Shown one piece after another: positions 4,365-45,062 of a stretch of 64,000 bases of DNA; positions within the stretch are counted from its first letter, which is position 1; each line of letters starts with the position of its first letter. The notes under the pieces were generated by a model. It searched no databases. It saw only the letters and a program-made list of their open reading frames with translations, and was not told the origin of the DNA. Source of the stretch: an uncultured Bacilli bacterium (GTDB taxonomy: Bacteria; Bacillota_I; Bacilli_A; RF39; UBA660); the NCBI GenBank assembly GCA_944363635.1, contig CALVUP010000007.1, positions 1,666 to 65,665 on the forward strand, given 5' to 3'. Made by a program: the position numbers and the translations under genes.

Positions 4365-4862
4365 ATGAAGAATAAAGGATTTACGATGGTTGAATTATTA
4401 GCAACCTTAGTTGTACTTAGTATTATTATGTTAATTGCTGTTCCTAGAGTAACAACGATATTAAGTCAAAACAAAAAACAAACGTTTATCAATGATGCAA
4501 AAAAGTTTATTTCTTTAGCGGAGCAAGAAGCAAGAAGAAGTAGTTATCAGTATGAATGTTATACTTTGAATAATGCGAGTAATCATGGTGCTTGTTATAA
4601 TATAGCAACAACAGACATAGAAACGTCTCCTTACGACGAAAAGTATTTAGAGTCTTCTCGTGTGTTACAATGTTCTGTTGGGGGTATTTATTATTATAAG
4701 GTGTATTTAACGGATGGAAAAATGAGTATTGAAGGGGCTTCTAAAGTAGCTAGTAAAGATAAAGCTTTGGTTGGTGAATTTACAGACATTAATGAAAACA
4801 GTGATAAAAAATATGATTTGGTAACTGAGTATAATTCTAATTATACGGTTACATGTAATTAG
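4365..4862 (+). CDS. prepilin-type N-terminal cleavage/methylation protein (ComGC/pseudopilin-like)
   Basis: MKNKG|FTMVELLATLVVLSIIMLIAVP class III signal with E at +5. C-terminal Cys pair. The track's 4320 start includes non-coding leader. Confidence 0.8.
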   Translation: MKNKGFTMVELLATLVVLSIIMLIAVPRVTTILSQNKKQTFINDAKKFISLAEQEARRSSYQYECYTLNNASNHGACYNIATTDIETSPYDEKYLESSRVLQCSVGGIYYYKVYLTDGKMSIEGASKVASKDKALVGEFTDINENSDKKYDLVTEYNSNYTVTCN

Positions 4863-4872
4863 AGGTGGTTTT

Positions 4873-5433
4873 GTGACAAAAAAAGGATTTACTTTAATAG
4901 AGTTATTAGCGGTTGTTGCTGTGCTTGGTCTTATTGCTTTAATTGCAGTTCCTAGTACAATGAATGTACTGGATAAAAATAAAAAAGAAGCTTTTATCAA
5001 TGATGCTAAAAAAATTATGCGTAGAGTTGAAGTAGAAGATCAAAAAAATGATTATCAAAATAAAATGTTTGTTGTGAATAATAAAAAACCGTCTGGGACT
5101 GTAACAACTCCAAATTATTACAATTATATTACTATGGATGATATCACAGTTTCTTCTTATGATAATGATTATAAATATCTTGTTGTTTATGCCTGTATGG
5201 CACCAGAAGAATATAATTCGATTCGCTATTATCGTATTTATTTAAATGATGGAGAATATCATTTAAGAGCTGTTAAAGGACTTCCTTCAAATCTTTTAAA
5301 TAATGATGTTTTAATGTATAATGTGGGAAACGAACCGTTTGATTTAAGTGATAGTAGTGTTAATCGTTATAAAATGGTGGAACAAGTTGGCGGTAATATC
5401 AATACTTATATGAGTTGTTATCGTTTTCGTTAA
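4873..5433 (+). CDS. prepilin-type pilin-like protein
   Basis: GTG start after GAGGTGG; MTKKG|FTLIELLAVVAVLGLIALIAVP. Confidence 0.8.
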   Translation: MTKKGFTLIELLAVVAVLGLIALIAVPSTMNVLDKNKKEAFINDAKKIMRRVEVEDQKNDYQNKMFVVNNKKPSGTVTTPNYYNYITMDDITVSSYDNDYKYLVVYACMAPEEYNSIRYYRIYLNDGEYHLRAVKGLPSNLLNNDVLMYNVGNEPFDLSDSSVNRYKMVEQVGGNINTYMSCYRFR

Positions 5434-16118: not shown

Positions 16119-17876
16119 ATGATTAAAGAAAAATTGATGTTGGTTCCTCATAAACCAGGTAGTTATCAAATGAAAGATAAAGACGGGAATATTATTTATG
16201 TAGGAAAAGCAAAAGATTTAAAAAATCGTTTAACCAGTTATTTTACTGGAACACATACGGGAAAAACATTACGTTTAGTACAAGATATTTATGATTTTGA
16301 ATATATTGTGACCTCTTCAGAGTTGGAATCTTTAATCTTAGAAATTAATTTAATTAAAAAGTATAATCCAAAATACAATATTTTATTAAAAGATGATAAA
16401 TCCTATCCATATATTGAACTTACTAAAGATAAATATCCAACTCTTAAAGTTATACGTAATGTAAAAAGAAAGAAAAATAAAAACAATTTATTTGGTCCTT
16501 TTCCAAATGTGAAAGCAGCACGTAGGACTGTAGAAATTATTAATCGAGTTTATCCTTTACGTAAATGTACCAATATGAAAAAAGATGTATGTCTTTATTA
16601 TCATATTCATGAATGCCTAGGTTATTGTAAATATGCGATTGATCCTAAGATGATTGAACAAATGAAAAAAGAAATCATTGCTTTTTTAAAAGGAGATAGT
16701 TCAATCATTGTAAAACGTATTACGGAAGATATGCAAAAGGCGAGTGAAGCGCTTAATTTTGAAAAAGCATTGGAATTAAAAGAAATGCTTCAAGATATTG
16801 ATATAACATTAAGAAAACAAAAAATTGATTTAAATAAAAATTATAATTTCGATTTATTTAATTATTATATTGATAATAATTATTTATCGATTCAAGTTTT
16901 CTTTATTAAAAACGGAATTTTATATGGAAGGGATAAAGCAATTGTTAATATTGTAAATAATCCCGAAGAAGAATTTATCAATTATATCATTCACTTTTAT
17001 GAGAAAAAGAATTTGCTACCAAAAGAAATTATTGTTCCTAATATTGAAGATAAAGAAGTTCTTAGTGCGTATTTAAATATTAAAGTCATAACTTATCAAA
17101 AAGGTAAAATTAAAAAATTATTAGATTTGGCTTTGGAAAATGCAAAAGAATATTTAGAACAACAAATGGATTTAATTACGCAAAATGAAAAGAAAAGAAT
17201 GGATGCTTTAGAAGAATTGAAGAAAATTTTACATACGGATCATGTTTCTAGAATTGAAGCTTTTGATAATTCTCATTTGTTTGGTACCTATTATGTTGGT
17301 GGAATGGTCTGTTTTTTGGATTTTATTCCTCAGAAAAATGAATATCGTAAATATAAAATCGATGCATCTGTAAAAGATGATTTATCGGCTATGCGAGAAG
17401 TTGTTTATCGAAGATATTATAAAGTTTTGATGGAAAATTTAGAAAAACCAGACGTAATCGTTGTTGATGGGGGAGAGTTGCAGTTAAAGGTAGTTAAAGA
17501 TATCATTGATTCATTAAAATTAAAGATTCGTGTGATTGGATTAAAAAAAGATAAAAAACATCGTACAAGTACTTTAATTGATGATGATTTTCAAGAAATT
17601 AAATTAGATCATCACAGTAATTTGTTTCTGTTTTTAAGTAAAATTCAAGAAGAGGTACATAATTACGCAATTAGTTACCATCGAAATATTAAAAGTAAGG
17701 GAATGCTATCTAGTGTGATTGATGCAATACCAGGTATTGGTGAGGTAAGAAAAAAACAACTCTTAAGAAAGTTTGGATCTTTAAAAAAATTAAAAGAAGC
17801 TACTCTAGAGGAATTAGTGGAAATTCTTCCTTTGGATGTAGCAAAAAAAACGTATGACTTTCTAAAGGATCTATAG
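16119..17876 (+). CDS. uvrC: excinuclease ABC subunit C
   Basis: GIY-YIG N-terminus (PGSYQMKDKDGNIIYVGKAKDLKNRL), UvrC central region and C-terminal HhH. Confidence 0.9.
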   Translation: MIKEKLMLVPHKPGSYQMKDKDGNIIYVGKAKDLKNRLTSYFTGTHTGKTLRLVQDIYDFEYIVTSSELESLILEINLIKKYNPKYNILLKDDKSYPYIELTKDKYPTLKVIRNVKRKKNKNNLFGPFPNVKAARRTVEIINRVYPLRKCTNMKKDVCLYYHIHECLGYCKYAIDPKMIEQMKKEIIAFLKGDSSIIVKRITEDMQKASEALNFEKALELKEMLQDIDITLRKQKIDLNKNYNFDLFNYYIDNNYLSIQVFFIKNGILYGRDKAIVNIVNNPEEEFINYIIHFYEKKNLLPKEIIVPNIEDKEVLSAYLNIKVITYQKGKIKKLLDLALENAKEYLEQQMDLITQNEKKRMDALEELKKILHTDHVSRIEAFDNSHLFGTYYVGGMVCFLDFIPQKNEYRKYKIDASVKDDLSAMREVVYRRYYKVLMENLEKPDVIVVDGGELQLKVVKDIIDSLKLKIRVIGLKKDKKHRTSTLIDDDFQEIKLDHHSNLFLFLSKIQEEVHNYAISYHRNIKSKGMLSSVIDAIPGIGEVRKKQLLRKFGSLKKLKEATLEELVEILPLDVAKKTYDFLKDL

Positions 17877-27009: not shown

Positions 27010-27933
27010 ATGCAATATTTAGAAGAATATATTAGGTATTTAACTTATGAAAAACAATATTCAAAATATACGGTTGTGAACTATGAAAGCGATATTTTAG
27101 AATTCATGGAATATTTGGGTCAAGAGGGGATTTCATTACTAAAAATTGATTACTCTCTTATTCGTGGTTATCTTAGTTATTTATTTAATGAAAAAAAAGA
27201 TAATAATACGACAGTCAGCAGAAAAATCAGCTCTTTAAGAGGTTTCTATAAATATCTATCCAATCATGGGTTAATTAAAAATAATCCTTTTCGTTTAGTC
27301 TCATTACCTAAAAAAAACAAACATTTGCCAAAATATTTCTATTATAATGAATTAGAAGAATTATTTAATAGTTGTGATACAAAAACACCTCTTGGTCAAA
27401 GAGATGAACTTATTTTAGAAATGCTTTATGCAACAGGAGTGCGCGTGAGTGAGCTTGTTAATATTCAAGTTGCAGATATTAATACGTATGATATGACGAT
27501 TAAAATATTAGGAAAGGGTAATAAAGAGAGAATTGTTTCTTTTGGAGAATATGCAAAAGATGCTTTGGATTTGTATATATCGGATGGTAGAAAAACTCTA
27601 AATACTAAAAATAGTAATTATTTGTTTTTAAATCATATAGGTGGACATCTTACAACGAGAGGGGTACGTGATATTTTAAATCGTATTATTAAGAAAACAA
27701 GTTTAGATAAAAATATTTCTCCCCATATGCTAAGACATACTTTTGCTACACATCTTATTAATGAGGGATGTGACCTGCTGGCTGTTTCTGAGTTGTTGGG
27801 CCACGAAAGTGTATCTGCAACGCAGATTTATACACATGTAACAACAGATCATCTAAAAGACGTTTATTTTCATACCCATCCGAGGGCTTATATAAATGAA
27901 AATGAGGATAAGTACAATGCAAACAAAGAGTAA
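27010..27933 (+). CDS. XerC/XerD-type tyrosine site-specific recombinase
   Basis: 307 aa; N-terminal core-binding domain; C-terminal R..K..HxxR..Y catalytic set (MLRHTFATHLI...LGH...IYTHV). Confidence 0.85.
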   Translation: MQYLEEYIRYLTYEKQYSKYTVVNYESDILEFMEYLGQEGISLLKIDYSLIRGYLSYLFNEKKDNNTTVSRKISSLRGFYKYLSNHGLIKNNPFRLVSLPKKNKHLPKYFYYNELEELFNSCDTKTPLGQRDELILEMLYATGVRVSELVNIQVADINTYDMTIKILGKGNKERIVSFGEYAKDALDLYISDGRKTLNTKNSNYLFLNHIGGHLTTRGVRDILNRIIKKTSLDKNISPHMLRHTFATHLINEGCDLLAVSELLGHESVSATQIYTHVTTDHLKDVYFHTHPRAYINENEDKYNANKE

Positions 27934-29825: not shown

Positions 29826-32462
29826 ATGAAATTTGTTTATTTATTTAAAGAAGGTAACGCTGACATGAGAGCCCTTTTAGGTGGTAAGGGTGCTAATTTA
29901 GCAGAAATGACAAATTTAGGTTTACCAATTCCACAAGGGTTTACCGTTACTACAGAAGCTTGTACGGATTATTACAAGAATGGAAAAACAATTTCGGAAG
30001 AAATTCAAAGCCAAATTTTTGATGCTTTAAAAGTATTAGAAGAAATGCAAGGTAAGAAATTTGGTGATAATTCAGATCCACTTTTGGTTTCTGTTCGTAG
30101 TGGAGCTCGTGCTTCTATGCCTGGTATGATGGATACAATTTTAAACTTAGGTTTAAATGATGAAGCTGTAGAAGGCTTTGCCGCTAAAACAGGAAATCCA
30201 AGATTTGCTTATGATTCTTATAGAAGATTCATTCAAATGTATTCTGATGTTGTTATGGAGGTTCCTAAATCATTCTTTGAAAAAATCATTGATGAGGTAA
30301 AAGAAGCTAAGGGAGTTCAATACGATACAGAACTTACTACAGAAGATTTAAAAGAGTTAGTTACTCGTTTTAAAGCTGTATATAAAGAAGCTATGAATGG
30401 GGAAGAATTCCCACAAGATCCAAAAGAACAATTAATGGGGGCTGTTAAAGCCGTATTTAGATCATGGGATAACCCAAGAGCTATCGTTTATAGAAGAATG
30501 AATGATATCCCTGGTGATTGGGGAACAGCTGTTAATGTTCAAGCTATGGTGTTTGGTAACATGGGAGATACTTCTGGTACTGGTGTTGCCTTTACTCGTA
30601 ATCCAGCTACTGGAGAAAAAGGCATTTTTGGTGAATACTTAATTAATGCACAAGGTGAGGATGTTGTTGCAGGAGTTCGTACTCCACAACCTATTTCTAA
30701 ACTTGCAGATGATATGCCTGAAGTTTATAAAGAATTTATGGAAATAGCTCATAAGTTAGAAGATCATTATAGAGATATGCAAGATATGGAGTTTACGATT
30801 CAAGAAGGAAAACTTTATTTCTTACAAACACGTAATGGAAAAAGAACAGCGCATGCTGCAATTAAAATTGCTTGTGATTTAGTAGACGAAGGTATGATTA
30901 CGAAAGAAGAAGCTGTACTTCGTATTGAAGCAAAATCACTTGATCAATTGTTGCATCCAACATTTAATACAGAAGCATTAAAGAATGGAGAAGTTATTGG
31001 AACTGCTCTTCCAGCATCACCTGGAGCTGCGGCTGGTAAAGTATATTTTACTGCAGAAGATGCTAAAGCTGCTGGTAAAGGTGGACGTGGCGAAAGAGTT
31101 ATCTTAGTTCGTCTTGAAACTTCACCAGAAGATATTGAAGGTATGAATGCCAGTCAAGGTATTTTAACAGTTCGTGGTGGTATGACATCACATGCTGCTG
31201 TTGTTGCTCGTGGTATGGGTACTTGCTGTGTATCTGGATGTGGCGATATTAAAATCGATGAAGAAAAGAAAGAATTTACTTTAGGTGGTTATACATTCCA
31301 TGAAGGAGATTATATTTCATTAGATGGTACAACTGGTAAAATCTATAAAGGAGATATTGCTACTGAGGAAGCTTCTGTTGGTGGAGACTTTGGTAGAATT
31401 ATGGCTTGGGCTGATGAAATTCGTACTTTACGTGTAAGAACAAATGCAGATAATCCAAGAGATACATTAAATGCTATTAAGCTTGGTGCTGAAGGTATTG
31501 GTCTTTGTCGTACAGAGCATATGTTCTTTGATGAAGAAAGAATTCCAAAAATCAGAAAGATGATTTTATCTGATACAACGGAAGAAAGAGAAGAAGCTTT
31601 GAATGAATTAATTCCATTCCAAAAAGGAGATTTCAAAGCTATGTATGAAGCTTTAGAAGGAAAACCAATGACAGTACGTTATTTGGATCCACCTCTACAT
31701 GAATTCTTACCTACAACAGAAGAAGATATTAAAGCTTTAGCAGAAGATATGCATATTTCAGTAGAACAAGTTAAAAATAAATGTGCTGAACTTCATGAAT
31801 TTAACCCTATGATGGGACACAGAGGTTGCCGTTTGGCTGTTACTTATCCAGAAATTGCTAGAATGCAAACAAGAGCGGTTATGGAAGCTGCTATTGAAGT
31901 AAAGGAAGAAAAAGGATATGATATTGTTCCTGAGATTATGATTCCACTTGTTGGAGAAAAGAAAGAATTAAAATTTGTTAAAGATGTTGTTGTTGAAACA
32001 GCAGAACAAGTTAAGAAAGAAAAGAATTCTGATATGCAATATCATATTGGTACTATGATTGAAATTCCAAGAGCTGCACTTACTGCAGATGAAATTGCTG
32101 AAGAAGCTGAATTCTTCTCGTTCGGAACAAATGATTTAACACAAATGACTTTTGGATTCTCAAGAGATGACGCTGGTAAATTCTTAGATTCTTATTATCA
32201 AGCTAAGATCTATGAATCTGATCCATTTGCTAAGTTAGATCAAAAAGGTGTTGGTCAATTGGTTAAAATGGCTGCTGAAAAAGGAAGAAAAACAAGACCT
32301 GATATTAAATTAGGTATTTGTGGTGAACATGGTGGAGATCCATCAAGTGTTGAGTTCTGCCATAATATTGGTTTGAATTATGTATCTTGTTCTCCATTTA
32401 GAGTTCCAATTGCACGCCTTGCTGCTGCACAAGCTGCTATACACGAAAAGGAGAATAATTAG
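29826..32462 (+). CDS. ppdK: pyruvate, phosphate dikinase
   Basis: 878 aa; phosphohistidine region GGMTSHAAVVARGMG; PEP-utilising C-terminal domain. Confidence 0.92.
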   Translation: MKFVYLFKEGNADMRALLGGKGANLAEMTNLGLPIPQGFTVTTEACTDYYKNGKTISEEIQSQIFDALKVLEEMQGKKFGDNSDPLLVSVRSGARASMPGMMDTILNLGLNDEAVEGFAAKTGNPRFAYDSYRRFIQMYSDVVMEVPKSFFEKIIDEVKEAKGVQYDTELTTEDLKELVTRFKAVYKEAMNGEEFPQDPKEQLMGAVKAVFRSWDNPRAIVYRRMNDIPGDWGTAVNVQAMVFGNMGDTSGTGVAFTRNPATGEKGIFGEYLINAQGEDVVAGVRTPQPISKLADDMPEVYKEFMEIAHKLEDHYRDMQDMEFTIQEGKLYFLQTRNGKRTAHAAIKIACDLVDEGMITKEEAVLRIEAKSLDQLLHPTFNTEALKNGEVIGTALPASPGAAAGKVYFTAEDAKAAGKGGRGERVILVRLETSPEDIEGMNASQGILTVRGGMTSHAAVVARGMGTCCVSGCGDIKIDEEKKEFTLGGYTFHEGDYISLDGTTGKIYKGDIATEEASVGGDFGRIMAWADEIRTLRVRTNADNPRDTLNAIKLGAEGIGLCRTEHMFFDEERIPKIRKMILSDTTEEREEALNELIPFQKGDFKAMYEALEGKPMTVRYLDPPLHEFLPTTEEDIKALAEDMHISVEQVKNKCAELHEFNPMMGHRGCRLAVTYPEIARMQTRAVMEAAIEVKEEKGYDIVPEIMIPLVGEKKELKFVKDVVVETAEQVKKEKNSDMQYHIGTMIEIPRAALTADEIAEEAEFFSFGTNDLTQMTFGFSRDDAGKFLDSYYQAKIYESDPFAKLDQKGVGQLVKMAAEKGRKTRPDIKLGICGEHGGDPSSVEFCHNIGLNYVSCSPFRVPIARLAAAQAAIHEKENN

Positions 32463-32545
32463 TCCACAGTTACAAATGGATTTAACCTTGTTTAATCATC
32501 GATAAAATATCACAATATAAGATCTAAGGGAAAAAGGACTAAATT

Positions 32546-32579
32546 AGACCAGAATTTCAAAAATTCTGGTCTTTTTTTA
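32546..32579 (+). terminator. Rho-independent terminator after ppdK
   Basis: agaccagaattt caaa aaattctggtct followed by ttttttt. Confidence 0.75.
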
Positions 32580-32772
32580 TGAAAAATAGTATTTTTTACC
32601 AAAAATTTAATGCTTGAGAAACGAGGTAAACTCGAATTGAATAAATGTTATGAAATCAAAAACATTGTATATTCATTTTTTAAATTTATATAAATAACAA
32701 AATATAAAACTATCGATTTTTATGGTAAGATATAATTAACCAATTAAAATCATCTTAGATTGGAGGTTAATT

Positions 32773-33765
32773 ATGAACAATAAAAATTTAATGTTAAGAC
32801 AAATGATGATAATATCTGATATGGTTCCATATATGAAAAGAAAAAATATTAAATTTGAAAAATGCTCAGAGAAAGACGCTGAAATATATTTGAGAGAAAA
32901 TAATAATTATTATAATGTAACATCTTATAAAAATAATTTTGTTAAATATCAGTGTGGTAAACAACAAGGAAAGTACATAGATTTGGATTTTGCATATTTA
33001 AAAGATTTATCTATTATAGATTATAGGACTAGATTAGTACTATTTAAAATGATCATTGATATAGAACATTATTTAAAAATAAGAATATTAAATACCATAG
33101 AAGATATAGTAGATGAAGATGGTTATAAAATTGTTAATCTATATTTAGAAAAAGATTTTTATGATGAAAAATGGCCTAAAAGAGTACATGAAAGTATCAG
33201 AAAAAAAGTTACAAATGAATATTATCAAAAAATATTTTCTAAATATGACTTAGATAAAGATACTAAAATAGAAAATATACCAATTTGGGAATTTCTTGAG
33301 ATAATAACTTTTGGAGAGCTGATTAATTTTTTTGCGTTTTTTACTAAGTATTATCAATTGGAAGATAATCAATATATATTTATTTTAAGGGAAGTAAATA
33401 AACTTAGAAATGCAGTAGCACATAATTCTTGTGTACTATCTGAATTAGCTAAAAAGGATAATACACATAGAGCTGATACATTAGTTATTCATTATTTGAA
33501 AGATTGTGGAATAGGAAAGGAAAATAGAAATACTAAACTTTCTAATTCAAGAATAAGACAAATTACATATACTTTGTATATGTTTAATATTATAGTAAGT
33601 AGTGAAGGTGTAAAAAATAATGTTAAACATGATATTACAAAATTATTTTATGAAAGAATAATTTTGAATAGAAAGTACTACAATAATAATGAACTATTGA
33701 AATCCATATATAATTATTTTGATAAAATTATCAAAAAAAATTATAAAGAAAATTCGGATCAATAG
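32773..33765 (+). CDS. Abi_2 family abortive-infection protein (AbiD/AbiD1/AbiF-like)
   Basis: 330 aa. N-terminal NNYYNVTSYK matches the family's YYRxSxY motif; ITFGELINFF; LRNAVAHNS (RNxxAH). About 20% GC; GGAGG RBS. Confidence 0.72.
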   Translation: MNNKNLMLRQMMIISDMVPYMKRKNIKFEKCSEKDAEIYLRENNNYYNVTSYKNNFVKYQCGKQQGKYIDLDFAYLKDLSIIDYRTRLVLFKMIIDIEHYLKIRILNTIEDIVDEDGYKIVNLYLEKDFYDEKWPKRVHESIRKKVTNEYYQKIFSKYDLDKDTKIENIPIWEFLEIITFGELINFFAFFTKYYQLEDNQYIFILREVNKLRNAVAHNSCVLSELAKKDNTHRADTLVIHYLKDCGIGKENRNTKLSNSRIRQITYTLYMFNIIVSSEGVKNNVKHDITKLFYERIILNRKYYNNNELLKSIYNYFDKIIKKNYKENSDQ

Positions 33766-33766
33766 T

Positions 33767-33795
33767 TTGACATAGAAAAATATTTGTGGTATATT
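33767..33795 (+). promoter_or_regulatory. sigmaA promoter (extended -10) driving a short intergenic transcript
   Basis: ttgaca - 17 nt - tatatt with TGg immediately upstream of the -10. Confidence 0.55.
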
Positions 33796-33832
33796 ATCTA
33801 TGCAAGGAAAAAATGTTAAATCATTTTTGTAA

Positions 33833-33864
33833 GGGGTCTATTTTCGAATAGAGCCCTATTTTTT
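33833..33864 (+). terminator. Rho-independent terminator about 40 nt downstream of the promoter
   Basis: gggtctatt ttcg aatagagccc followed by tatttttt. Confidence 0.55.
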
Positions 33865-33895
33865 ACCAAAAGTTATCAAAAGAAAATAATTAATG

Positions 33896-33938
33896 AAAAT
33901 GCTAGTTCATTGACTAGCATTTTTTATTATGTTATAAT
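33896..33938 (+). promoter_or_regulatory. second hairpin/terminator overlapping the sigmaA promoter of the 621-aa gene
   Basis: 11-bp perfect stem aaaatgctagt / actagcatttt. The -35 ttgact sits in the loop/right arm, then 17 nt, then tataat. Confidence 0.55.
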
Positions 33939-33961
33939 ATACCATTATTAAAAAAGGGGAC

Positions 33962-35827
33962 ATGCGAAATATGGGGGCTAATGATTTTGATTTTAAAGAT
34001 AAGGATTTTTTAAAAGACGTATATGCTTTAATAAAAGAGAAAGCTAAAGAGGAAGAACACTTATTTAGCGATAATAATCCGGCTAAAATAGAAAATAATC
34101 CTTTACTTGCGGATTTTGATTATGTCTATCAACATGCTGAATATCTTTTTTGTTTTTGCGTATTTGATTATCAAAACTATCAAAAAGCAGATCAATATTT
34201 TACCCTGTTTAAAGTTTTAACGACGAAATATAGTTTGGAAGAGGATTATAATACGTATATAGTTTCAGATCCACGGGTTCTTGATTTAAAGTGGGAACGT
34301 TTTTGTAGTGAGTTGTATAGTTTTTTATATCATGCCATGCAAGATGAGCGTGTTTTAATAGAAGTTATCAATAAAAAAGAAGTTATTGACTATTTTACAA
34401 GATATTCTTATTTATATGATCATAATGCATTGTTTCGTGATTCTACTGCGACTGCTTGTAGTGAATTATTAAAGTATTCACAATTTCATTCTTACTATTT
34501 GTACCATCCAAGAGATCTAATCTATTTAATGAAAAAATATCCTTTTATAAAAGTTCCACCTGATGTTATGTTAAATACAAATATAATACAGAATGTTACA
34601 CATGAGATTGATATGTATAAATTTTATTCCATGTTATACTATGTTGGTGAACAAGTATCGGAGTATCATTATTTAGAAGAACATAAAAAATATTTGGATG
34701 AACAAATAAACAATATAAAAGATGGGATATTGCCTTATTTTTATGATGCCTATTTAAAAAGTAATCATCATATATCAATATATGATATAAGAAGTTTTGC
34801 TTATAGATGGAATTTTAATGTAAATAGAATGTGTAACATATTTAAAGAAAAAGGCACAAATAAATTAAAAAAAGATACTTTATTTCAAGCATTAACAAAA
34901 GAATATTTGCTGGATATTTATATCAGTAGACATTTTGAAACCTATCCAGATAATTTAATCATTGATATTGAAACTTTAACGAAATTTGCAAAAGAGAATC
35001 ATAAAGTATTAAAAGGGCAAATTATTTATGATTTTATCGCCAACTATAAAGAAAAATCCATTGATGAGATTATTCAATTTTATAATGCTTCTAAAAATTT
35101 AAATATAAAAGAGATATTATATGACGACTGGAATAAGCAAATAGAATCTTTTATTAGCGAATTAAATGAAACTATTCTTCTACCTGAAAAAATAGAGGAT
35201 TATGAAGTTCATTTATTGAATGAAGAAGGAAAACAAAAACTTACTGCAAGTGATGTAAAAATTTTTGATATTACTAATATAGATGCACCAATATTAGTTC
35301 ATAATACTTCCGTATCTAAAGAGAATCAGGAGGTTATAGATAAGACTTTACAACAAATAAAAACAGGGTATAAAGAACGATTGTGTTTGAGTTTACAAGA
35401 TAAAAATCATACAGAATTTTATACAGAATCTTTTGTAGAAGAAGCTAAAGATAAAGAAATAAAATTTGTATTTGGAAAAATGGAAGCAAACAGAGTGGGA
35501 ATTGTTTGTCATGAAGATGCCTATTCCATTGGTATTGATACTGTTGAATTTGGAAATTTTGGATATATAAGAAGTTTGTATACGGTTCAGTCTTTACTAG
35601 ATCATACAACGAGATACAATGAAATTGATTATCTTATTTCTCATGAACCCTTTCTCCCAGTTGCACTTCTTTGTGAGAATAAAATAAATGATTATGATAT
35701 TAATTTAGCGTCTAAGCTAAACATTCCTATATTTTTTAGAGAAAAGAAAAACATTTTAGAAAATACAGAGATTCATGAGGATCATAAAGTCAAAAGAAAG
35801 TATCAGCATATTGGGATTTTAAACTAA
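33962..35827 (+). CDS. hypothetical 621-aa cytoplasmic protein (no recognisable domain), candidate partner of the Abi_2 gene
   Basis: Long ORF, AT-rich, Tyr/Asp-rich, with no TM segment or P-loop. Has its own promoter. Confidence 0.6.
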   Translation: MRNMGANDFDFKDKDFLKDVYALIKEKAKEEEHLFSDNNPAKIENNPLLADFDYVYQHAEYLFCFCVFDYQNYQKADQYFTLFKVLTTKYSLEEDYNTYIVSDPRVLDLKWERFCSELYSFLYHAMQDERVLIEVINKKEVIDYFTRYSYLYDHNALFRDSTATACSELLKYSQFHSYYLYHPRDLIYLMKKYPFIKVPPDVMLNTNIIQNVTHEIDMYKFYSMLYYVGEQVSEYHYLEEHKKYLDEQINNIKDGILPYFYDAYLKSNHHISIYDIRSFAYRWNFNVNRMCNIFKEKGTNKLKKDTLFQALTKEYLLDIYISRHFETYPDNLIIDIETLTKFAKENHKVLKGQIIYDFIANYKEKSIDEIIQFYNASKNLNIKEILYDDWNKQIESFISELNETILLPEKIEDYEVHLLNEEGKQKLTASDVKIFDITNIDAPILVHNTSVSKENQEVIDKTLQQIKTGYKERLCLSLQDKNHTEFYTESFVEEAKDKEIKFVFGKMEANRVGIVCHEDAYSIGIDTVEFGNFGYIRSLYTVQSLLDHTTRYNEIDYLISHEPFLPVALLCENKINDYDINLASKLNIPIFFREKKNILENTEIHEDHKVKRKYQHIGILN

Positions 35828-35903
35828 TGATTTCTTTTGAAAATTCTAGTACAAAACTTAAAAGAATGGTATACTAGTATTTGAAGAGTAAAGGAGAGAT
35901 AAA

Positions 35904-36686
35904 ATGAAATTAGATGGAAAAGTCGCAATTGTTACAGGGGGAGCTATGGGCAATGGCCTAGGCATTGTAAAAGTATTTTTGAAATATGGAGCGGATGTCG
36001 TGATTATTGATTATTCCGATCAATTAAATCAGACGGTACAAGATTTACATAGTGAGAAAGTTTGTGGTTATCAAGCAGATATTCGTGATAAAGAGCGTTT
36101 ACGTAGTATTGTAGAAGAGGTAATTGCTAAGAAAGGAAAAATTGATATATTAGTCAATAATGCAGGGGTTGCTAAACTTGAACCATTCACAGAGATGTCT
36201 GATGAAGTAAGAGATTATCATTTTGATATTAATATTAAGGGTACTTGGAATATGAGTCAGGTTGTTGTTCCTTATATGATTAAACAAAATTATGGAAAAA
36301 TTGTAAATTTATCAAGTGTAACAGGACCAATGGTAGCGGATACTGGAGAAGTGGCTTATGCAACGACAAAAGCAGCGGTATTAGGATTTACAAAATGTTT
36401 GGCTATGGAACTTGTTAAGAGGAACATCAACGTCAATGCCATTATGCCTGGTTATATTATGACTCCTATGGTAGATGGTATTGCCAAGGATTCTAACGCC
36501 AGTGATCCAGAAAGTGTTGTAAAGGGAATCGCTGCGGGTATTCCAATGGGAAGACTTGGTACAATTGAAGAATTAGGGGAATTAGCTGCATTTTTGGCAA
36601 GTGAGGAATCTAGTTATATAACAGGCCAAGGTATTGTAATTGATGGAGCTTCCACTTTGCCAGAAACCAATAGTGTAGGTGTATAA
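35904..36686 (+). CDS. short-chain dehydrogenase/reductase (SDR)
   Basis: TGGAMGNGLG Rossmann motif, NNAG, and YATTKAA (YxxxK). Confidence 0.85.
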   Translation: MKLDGKVAIVTGGAMGNGLGIVKVFLKYGADVVIIDYSDQLNQTVQDLHSEKVCGYQADIRDKERLRSIVEEVIAKKGKIDILVNNAGVAKLEPFTEMSDEVRDYHFDINIKGTWNMSQVVVPYMIKQNYGKIVNLSSVTGPMVADTGEVAYATTKAAVLGFTKCLAMELVKRNINVNAIMPGYIMTPMVDGIAKDSNASDPESVVKGIAAGIPMGRLGTIEELGELAAFLASEESSYITGQGIVIDGASTLPETNSVGV

Positions 36687-44330: not shown

Positions 44331-45062
44331 ATGTTATCTTTAGAAGAAAAAGTGAACCAACTAAATACAATTTTAAAACATTCGAAACGAATTGTCTTTT
44401 TTGGTGGTGCTGGTGTTTCGACAGAAAGTGGTATTCCGGATTTTAGAAGCAAAGATGGTCTTTATCATCAAAAATATCATAAAGATCCCGAATATATGCT
44501 TAGTCATACGTGTTTAGTAAGAGAACCAGAGGCATTTTATAAATTTTATTTTGATAAAATGATTTATGAAGAGGCACAACTGAATGTTTGTCATAAAAAG
44601 TTAGTAGAATTAGAAAAAAGAGGAAAATTAAGTGCTATTATTACACAAAATATTGATGGGTTGCATCAACAGGCGGGATCTCATCATGTGTTAGAACTTC
44701 ATGGGAATGCTTATAGATTATTTTGTACAAACTGTGGTCATGACTATCATTTAAAAAGCATCAGAAGGGAGAAGATTCCTACTTGTCCAAGTTGTGGAGG
44801 ATTATTGAGACCGGATGTTGTTTTATATGGAGAAGCTTTAAATGAAACAATTGTAGAAGAAACAATTTATGAGATAAAGCAGTGTGATACTTTAATTATT
44901 GGTGGAACGTCTTTAGTTGTATATCCAGCAGCGACTTTTGTACAATATTTCAGAGGGAAAAATTTGATTATTATTAATAAAGATCAAACGACTATGGATG
45001 GGCAGGCTGATCTTATTATCCATGATGCGATTGGTAAAGTGTTTTCTAAAATCGATATTTAG
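44331..45062 (+). CDS. cobB: NAD-dependent protein deacylase (sirtuin)
   Basis: GAGVSTESGIPDFRS, QNIDGLH, and Zn ribbon CTNCG...CPSCGG. Confidence 0.85.
   Translation: MLSLEEKVNQLNTILKHSKRIVFFGGAGVSTESGIPDFRSKDGLYHQKYHKDPEYMLSHTCLVREPEAFYKFYFDKMIYEEAQLNVCHKKLVELEKRGKLSAIITQNIDGLHQQAGSHHVLELHGNAYRLFCTNCGHDYHLKSIRREKIPTCPSCGGLLRPDVVLYGEALNETIVEETIYEIKQCDTLIIGGTSLVVYPAATFVQYFRGKNLIIINKDQTTMDGQADLIIHDAIGKVFSKIDI

Follow-up and report, generated by a model that had tools for sequence, protein, structure and literature searches.

Between ppdK and an SDR gene in a 64,000-nucleotide (nt) stretch of DNA from an uncultured Bacilli bacterium (hereafter the window), an AT-rich segment of 3.4 kb carries two adjacent genes and raises the question of whether they work together. 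An earlier reading made from the letters of the DNA (the sequence-only reading) listed two open reading frames (ORFs) in this segment, and these are found on the + strand at 32773-33765 (gene 1, 330 amino acids [aa]) and 33962-35827 (gene 2, 621 aa; residue numbers below follow this ORF). It took gene 1 for an abortive-infection protein of the Abi_2 family and proposed that the large product of gene 2 might be its conserved partner in a new two-component defense module. The comparisons described here favor a different reading, in which the segment consists of two independent accessory cassettes lying side by side in this one species: an Abi_2 unit with a candidate RNA partner, and a stand-alone gene 2 whose product is tentatively viewed as an ADP-ribosyltransferase (ART). 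We assign this reading as a whole a probability of about 0.6.

Independence of the two genes

Evidence on this question comes from the places where each gene occurs elsewhere. Blastn comparisons recovered exactly positions 32699-33893 at 87% identity in the Abi_2 loci L101-L106, whatever their neighboring genes, and 32797-33863/71 at 82% identity in L108-L115. Another block, 33891-35839, is shared with L014, an independent locus that encodes a gene 2 relative of 74% protein identity and whose short flanks, which extend only about 30 and 300 nt beyond the shared block, do not match the window. Because the two homology blocks are separate, the segment can be divided into two cassettes, which abut at about 33891-33895.

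Searches in both directions gave the same picture. No Abi_2 gene was found by tblastn in 12 gene 2 loci (L001-L012; relatives 30-43% identical), and L014 has neither Abi_2 nor any other ORF of at least 65 aa, with ~110 and ~315 bp of flank. Likewise, the gene 2 profile detected no relative in 20 Abi_2 loci, including loci whose Abi_2 is 83-89% identical. The neighbors of gene 2 relatives all differ (ParA/ParB, EamA, 2-Hacid_dh/Fic, HD_3, SmpB, EzrA, Ham1, a WYL regulator, and a serine recombinase), and one identical Abi_2 protein is present in at least four unrelated contexts. The families also contrast in abundance, with 957 hits for the Abi_2 subfamily and 13 clusters for the gene 2 family.

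A closely related strain provided a further line of evidence. Across most of the segment, L016 is 98-99% identical to the window, and its Abi_2 protein is identical to the window's. Its gene 2 carries deletions of 169 bp and 492 bp, each at a short direct repeat, as well as two 1-bp frameshifts, and the 492-bp deletion removes the conserved C-terminal domain. By these lesions gene 2 is a pseudogene in L016 and is dispensable. The possibility that gene 2 serves as the antitoxin of Abi_2 was rejected, since the pseudogene lies beside an intact Abi_2 gene. In the other four of the five contigs of this species, both genes are apparently intact as far as the contig reaches. L016 also has an extra 217-aa ORF (4577-5230, no Pfam match) between the SDR and PfkB genes, which the window lacks.

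Within the segment, two terminator-like hairpins plus a separate promoter with 11 of 12 consensus positions lie between the genes, which appear from these signals to be separate transcription units. The sequence-only reading had credited each gene with a near-consensus promoter. This holds for gene 2; gene 1 has only a conserved -10 hexamer (TATAAT) with a poor -35, and the near-consensus promoter at 33767-33795 follows gene 1, is itself followed by a terminator, and serves neither protein gene. A near-perfect inverted repeat of 11-13 bp, AAAATGCTAGT...ACTAGCATTTT, is located at the cassette junction and overlaps the -35 of the gene 2 promoter. Possible roles for this repeat are those of an insulator, an operator, or a recombination site.

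A module in which gene 2 acts as sensor, effector, or antitoxin of Abi_2 would fit the adjacency of the genes on the same strand of one AT-rich stretch and the four of five conspecific contigs that carry both, but it has to contend with the lack of any co-occurrence in 13 gene 2 loci and, in reverse, 20 Abi_2 loci, with the disparity in family size, with homology blocks and apparent transcription units that are separate, and with the L016 pseudogene. Judged across these genomes, the comparisons show the two genes to be independent; we consider the two-gene interpretation to be wrong and leave a functional module of this kind only a very slight chance. No follow-up effort on an Abi_2-plus-large-protein defense module is needed.

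An Abi_2 protein with a predicted RNase active site

The placement of gene 1 in the Abi_2 family was well founded. The three peptides quoted in support of it (NNYYNVTSYK, FGELINFF, and LRNAVAHNS) are all present, and hidden Markov models (HMMs) for both Abi_2 and AbiD match the protein: Pfam Abi_2 (PF07751) with 84 bits (gathering cut-off 25.6; E 2e-23) over profile positions 4-182 of 184, and the PADLOC AbiD model with 7e-16. It also matches phrog_2158, "abortive infection resistance protein," with 5.5e-28. By these profile matches, its membership in the Abi_2/AbiD-F family is unambiguous.

The catalytic motif of HEPN proteins is R-phi-xxx-H, in which phi is N, H, or D, and mutation of the equivalent R and H in Clostridioides difficile AbiF abolishes toxicity (PMC12373285). 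The RNAVAH motif of gene 1 has this form. Among 28 subfamily members, N213, A214, and V215 do not vary, and R212 and H217 are nearly constant, at 90% or more. Gene 1 is therefore predicted to encode the RNase toxin of an abortive-infection system.

The subfamily is abundant, comprising 957 homologous clusters at E<=1e-20, of which all 120 that were listed contain PF07751; more than 120 clusters are 78-90% identical to gene 1. By phmmer, gene 1 matched the sequence of no protein of solved structure, and it had no match in a viral scan. Conserved DNA upstream of the gene 1 ATG extends for only 74 nt and holds just the -10 hexamer, which was not picked up by a consensus promoter scan, and the ribosome-binding site. 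The earlier view of Abi_2 proteins as usually stand-alone has been superseded, and AbiD/F systems are now seen as a protein plus an RNA (PMC12373285, PMC13064643).

A candidate small RNA directly downstream from gene 1

One base past the gene 1 stop codon begins a promoter that precedes a candidate RNA of two predicted hairpins (Table 1). Because this promoter sits between the stop codon and a terminator, transcripts initiated there would end ~65 nt on. The unit was compared among the window lineage, the P0165-type and P0207-type Abi_2 lineages, and an orphan copy described below, and it is located directly 3' of Abi_2 in three close lineages. Both promoter hexamers are invariant, whereas the 17-nt spacer is only 65% identical to that of L108. 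Between lineages with 82-87% identity in their coding DNA, the 61-nt RNA core differs at 2 positions (~97% identity), and sequence similarity collapses past the U-tract. The few substitutions either fall in loops or convert A-U pairs to G-U.

A covariance model built from the close sequences was run over 1.16 Mb of related DNA and detected no further copy. When it was applied to four phage or plasmid loci with Abi_2 proteins of just 31-35% identity, its best match in every case lay directly 3' of the Abi_2 stop codon. Three of these matches share the strand of the Abi_2 gene; in L118 the best match is on the other strand, with a weaker match on that of the gene. The promoters of L120 and L117 (TTGACA-17-TATAAT) overlap the end of the Abi_2 ORFs and are followed by AAAAAGC/GCUUUU hairpins, by GUAAGGG or GUGGGGG, and by second hairpins that are entirely different in sequence, and the 3' unit of L119 resembles these two. 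Compensatory stem changes occur in two of the distant units. In alignment A8, which was fitted to the model and whose covariation rests on two distant sequences, 100% of the cells are paired and 8 of 17 pairs are changed on both sides, a result reached by 0 of 500 shuffles; in slid controls the share of paired cells drops to 39-64%.

Conservation and covariation of the unit are thus evident from the alignments. We infer that it is the RNA component of this Abi_2 clade, by analogy with characterized systems, because the RNA motif of those systems (abiF, RF03085) is undetectable here and the conserved stretch upstream of gene 1 is too short to hold such an RNA. The promoter and terminator signals suggest that the RNA would be expressed as a separate transcript.

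Two other roles were considered and discarded. An antisense action of the RNA on the 5' region of abi_2 has little to recommend it, given that pairing was equally good or better for 58 of 100 shuffles. A micro-ORF of 12 codons inside the RNA, MLNHFCKGSIFE, is unlikely to encode a peptide because the substitutions read from the alignment are all non-synonymous.

The orphan copy is located on the - strand of L116 at 2484-2560 (IMG/VR contig IMGVR_UViG_3300029782_000304), with a radical SAM/SPASM gene on one side and an SDR gene on the other, and its promoter, RNA, and terminator are complete. Within 10 kb are a DpnII restriction enzyme, two methylases, an IS110 transposase, and a pRiA4 ORF3-like gene. 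A nearby 596-aa ORF was examined as a possible gene 2 relative and set aside, since the gene 2 profile finds no relationship.

A rare gene family with a candidate ADP-ribosyltransferase domain

Gene 2 has two in-frame ATG codons 9 nt apart. Its ribosome-binding GGGG lies 11 nt before the ATG at 33971 and only 2 nt before the one at 33962. Because the former spacing fits and public gene calls give 618 aa, translation most likely starts at 33971.

No match to gene 2 was found in Pfam, NCBIfam, PADLOC, or PHROGs, and 10 distant members gave no significant domain against Pfam. Its homologs comprise 13 clusters among 5.8 billion, all unannotated. An exhaustive profile search returned 160 representatives, mostly 570-670 aa long, and a second, word-indexed homology search with a broad gene 2 alignment returned known members only. 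Reference genomes with relatives are AT-rich metagenome-assembled genomes mostly labeled Bacillota, Bacilli, Bacillales, or Tenericutes, and tblastn of gene 2 against phage and plasmid collections gave no match. The family is therefore a rare one of AT-rich gut Bacillota, and it is without annotation.

An AlphaFold2 (AF2) model of gene 2 is of good confidence (pLDDT 83.6, pTM 0.76) and suggests a large helical N-terminal domain (about aa 20-415) followed by an alpha/beta C-terminal domain (about aa 430-595). Profile searches of the PDB with gene 2 alignments returned noise only, with no ART chain among the matches. The sequence-only reading had recognized no P-loop, nuclease, HEPN, or transmembrane signature in gene 2. 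Our searches agree, although a candidate ART motif set is present.

Members of the ART clan carry motif I, [H/R]-x-[S/T], in beta-strand 1 (PMC7955679) and motif II, S-x-S or Y-x-x, in beta-strand 2; in PARP1/2, motif III is YNE (PMC7955679). Conservation was counted over 93 gene 2 family members at 15-20% identity, in which S477, D519, N553, and E554 are among the near-invariant residues. The counterpart of motif I is V-H447-N-T in strand 444-452, taken by assumption as ART strand 1, with H in 48, K in 21, and R in 15 members at position 447 and T in 45 and S in 7 at position 449. Motif II lies in strand 473-479, where position 475 is S in 72 of the 93 and C in 18, and S477 is kept in 90. At the start of strand 553-558, motif III reads Y552 (74 of 93), N553 (84), and E554 (92). 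All three ART clan motifs are therefore present in the right order. On this pattern of residues, we put the chance that the C-terminal domain is an ADP-ribosyltransferase at close to even, perhaps a shade under, and its activity would then use NAD+.

Weighing the alternatives

Several observations weigh against the two-cassette reading in its full form, beginning with the RNA. Hairpin 2 looks like a plain Abi_2 terminator, and terminators covary too; the covariation comes from two distant sequences in an alignment fitted to the model. The orphan copy in L116 has no Abi_2 gene nearby. RF03085 gave no match in 32463-32800 or 33740-33990 at a threshold of E<=10, or in seven related loci at one of E<=0.01, and no Rfam family at all, RF03085 included, matches the small RNA. 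In addition, all characterized AbiD/F RNAs lie upstream of their gene. It might then be proposed that the 3' element is not an RNA gene, and instead combines the terminator or 3' untranslated region of Abi_2 with a downstream promoter or leader, or forms the recombination or insertion end of the cassette. Such an origin would account for the standard intrinsic terminator formed by hairpin 2 and its U-tract, for the position of the element at the cassette edge, for Rfam matches that are terminator look-alikes, and for an orphan copy in a mobile region with IS110. It is harder to reconcile with a conserved consensus promoter of variable spacer placed between stop codon and terminator, with downstream genes that differ or lie on the opposite strand, with a hairpin 1 and GUAAGGG junction that are conserved or covarying at loci of 32-35% protein identity, and with an orphan copy that retains promoter, RNA, and terminator intact. 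We consider this explanation unlikely and retain the candidate RNA gene.

For gene 2, the difficulty lies in the ART assignment. No ART HMM matched any of 53 family members (10 full-length and 43 C-terminal domains, at E<=10), gene 2 itself belongs to no ART family in Pfam, NCBIfam, or PADLOC, Foldseek against the PDB and BFVD gave nothing at E<=1e-3, and an AF2 model of the C-terminal domain alone is poor (pLDDT 57). Moreover, 5 of the 43 domains have weak matches to HAD "Hydrolase_like," over the last beta-alpha-beta unit and its C-x-D-x-I-x3-D pattern, and D519 is nearly invariant yet has no role in the ART triad. The same facts speak for another or new alpha/beta fold, such as a HAD/Rossmann-like hydrolase, in which S477, D519, E554, and D573 would serve different chemistry. 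With the ordered motif set on the other side, this is a serious contender, although we rate it at clearly less than an even chance. An ordinary housekeeping function for gene 2, with the island being locally AT-rich native DNA, would suit a gene whose guanine-plus-cytosine (GC) content is within the range of host genes, whose relatives mostly lie among housekeeping genes, and which is absent from phage and plasmid collections. A family this rare and patchy, with no conserved neighborhood, with some relatives beside serine recombinase, ParAB, Fic, or WYL genes, and with a pseudogene in a near-identical strain makes that view improbable. An island-free allele was found by neither ppdK nor SDR comparison: 80 metagenome loci whose ppdK is 67-88% identical were uninformative because the DNA after ppdK is not syntenic with that of the window, and an exact look-up of the SDR protein gave only strains that also carry gene 2.

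Proposed functions and their significance

Under the two-cassette reading, cassette 1 (32699-33893) would be an AbiD/F-type abortive-infection unit. The gene 1 HEPN RNase is predicted to cleave RNA and thereby halt growth upon phage infection. The candidate RNA of ~65 nt, with a predicted transcript of its own, would be the second component, which probably binds the RNase and silences it until infection occurs. This would mirror the upstream noncoding RNAs (ncRNAs) of characterized AbiF systems and their type III toxin-antitoxin logic, and it is by this analogy that the RNA is regarded as the antitoxin of gene 1. Its location downstream, with a strong promoter of its own, would be a positional variant of the AbiF architecture. 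Cassette 2 (33891-35839) would be a stand-alone gene 2 that has its own promoter, works apart from Abi_2, and is dispensable; any role that it has in defense would be putative.

AbiF-type toxin-RNA pairs are of current interest as proposed ancestors of CRISPR-Cas13. If the reading is correct, a free-standing RNA gene that follows its effector and has its own strong promoter widens the known AbiF architectures, and a 330-aa protein with a 65-nt RNA makes a simple, testable pair. Gene 2 offers a defined target for biochemistry, being rare and unannotated, with a confident model that has no close structural neighbors and with a plausible ADP-ribosyltransferase active site. A broader generalization can also be drawn, in which a widespread gut-Bacillota clade of Abi_2/AbiF HEPN toxins uses separately promoted, two-hairpin downstream RNA antitoxins unrelated in sequence to RF03085 and could be countered by decoys of the L116 type on mobile DNA, and gene 2 founds a new ART family whose hybrid active site (H/K/R, S-x-S, YNE) is joined to a novel helical domain. 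We regard that combination as doubtful.

Features of the segment and its surroundings

The features discussed above are collected in Table 1. The terminator that the sequence-only reading placed downstream from ppdK is present, and Rfam matches there are terminator look-alikes only. The sharp fall in GC content that it described is real in part. In 1-kb windows, the mean GC content of the 64-kb window is 30.1% (standard deviation 2.6%), and gene 1, at 21.1%, is its lowest stretch. Gene 2, at 26.3%, is matched by other host genes (e.g., 16119-17876 at 26.2%), and ppdK averages 35.5% rather than the 40% given earlier. The compositional outlier is gene 1 only, not gene 2.

Table 1. Positions of features in and around the segment (window coordinates)
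Feature	Position	Strand	Basis or remark
ppdK	29826-32462	+	PPDK_N/PEP-utilizers domains; 5' neighbor of the accessory segment
ppdK intrinsic terminator	32546-32579	+	12-bp stem, 3-nt loop (32546-32572), then T-run; upstream limit of the segment
Abi_2 cassette	32699-33893	+	blastn block shared with Abi_2 loci in unrelated contexts
Probable gene 1 promoter, -10 TATAAT	32731-32736	+	kept in upstream alignment of all Abi_2 lineages; -35 poor
Gene 1 ribosome-binding site GGAGG	32762-32766	+	read from sequence
Gene 1, Abi_2/AbiD-F family HEPN protein, 330 aa	32773-33765	+	Pfam, PADLOC, and PHROGs matches
HEPN catalytic motif R-phi-xxx-H, R212-N-A-V-A-H217	33406-33423	+	located in gene 1
Small-RNA promoter, TTGACA-17 nt-TATATT with TG extension	33767-33795	+	11/12 consensus match
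Candidate small RNA, ~65 nt, two hairpins	33800-33864	+	folding, conservation
Small-RNA hairpin 1, AAAAAUG/CAUUUUU	33809-33828	+	folding; GUA linker next
Small-RNA hairpin 2, predicted intrinsic terminator	33832-33857	+	folding; U-tract next
Gene 2 cassette	33891-35839	+	blastn, 80% identity to L014, no match beyond
Inverted repeat, 11-13 bp	33895-33924	either	terminator-like on both strands
Gene 2 promoter, TTGACT-17 nt-TATAAT with TG extension	33910-33938	+	11/12 match; inside block shared with L014
Gene 2, 618 aa (621 aa if from 33962)	33971-35827	+	most likely start, by ribosome-binding-site spacing and public gene calls
Gene 2 C-terminal domain, candidate ADP-ribosyltransferase-like fold	35249-35746	+	motif set
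Candidate motif I, H447-N-T	35300-35308	+	gene 2 C-terminal domain
Candidate motif II, S475-x-S477 (C475 in window protein)	35384-35392	+	gene 2 C-terminal domain
Candidate motif III, Y552-N-E554	35615-35623	+	gene 2 C-terminal domain
SDR gene	35904-36686		3' neighbor of the accessory segment

Other elements were noted at related loci and elsewhere in the window. In L101, an Abi_2-bearing element comes immediately after a ppdK gene (70% identity to that of the window), and in L102 such an element follows a large serine recombinase. In both loci (L101 103-7685; L102 1145-7691), the Abi_2 cassette (89% protein identity) closes a longer element whose order is HTH, ParB_N, a 266-aa ORF, an 88-aa ORF, Abi_2, and a 137-139-aa ORF without a Pfam match. 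The 3' end of ppdK may be a recurrent insertion site. In the window itself, a tyrosine recombinase of 307 aa with Phage_integrase and Phage_int_SAM domains lies just upstream of ppdK (27010-27933), flanked by two large genes, of 634 and 576 aa, that carry the N_methyl (type IV pilin-like prepilin) motif. A 243-aa SIR2-family protein (PF02146) is encoded at 44331-45062, ~8.5 kb downstream from the segment.

Relation to known systems

The ART clan, for which we take the DarT protein of DarTG, CteC, and the PARP catalytic domain as references, differs from gene 2 in several respects. No ART family in Pfam includes gene 2, and Foldseek gave no match for it. Its motifs form a hybrid set in which position I is H or K/R but position II is S-x-S in place of Y, and the domain is joined to an uncharacterized helical domain of ~400 aa. 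Unlike DarTG, gene 2 has no DarG-like macrodomain or other antidote gene beside it.

The known systems that gene 1 resembles most are those of AbiF, AbiD, and AbiD1, including C. difficile AbiF-RCd22 and Prevotellaceae PbAbiF-AbiFr (PDB 8vz6), with which it shares the same Abi_2/AbiD models and the R-phi-xxx-H HEPN motif. These systems are now described as type III toxin-antitoxin pairs of a protein plus an RNA, in which the known ncRNA is encoded upstream with the abiF motif (RF03085), in a flank that is more conserved than the gene (PMC12373285, PMC13064643, PMC12737573). Gene 1 likewise adjoins a short, structured candidate RNA that has a sigma-A-type promoter and an intrinsic terminator of its own, and, as in lactococcal AbiD/F, this flank is more conserved than the coding sequence. 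The window RNA is downstream from gene 1, however, and not in the 5' leader, a position that excludes premature termination of abi transcription as its mode of action.

A more distant comparison can be made with ToxIN, AbiQ-antiQ, and CptIN, in which an endoribonuclease toxin of abortive infection adjoins a small RNA and a terminator, an arrangement that the window resembles. The toxin predicted here is a HEPN protein, in contrast to the ToxN/AbiQ fold of those systems. Their antitoxins are tandem repeat arrays located upstream of the toxin and processed by it, whereas the window has a single unit downstream, and no tandem repeat array was found in 32463-33990. Phage-borne pseudo-antitoxin RNAs are reportedly a known escape route from type III toxin-antitoxin systems, an account attributed to Blower et al. 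2012. By analogy, the orphan RNA copy in L116, complete with promoter and terminator, is possibly a phage-type pseudo-antitoxin decoy.

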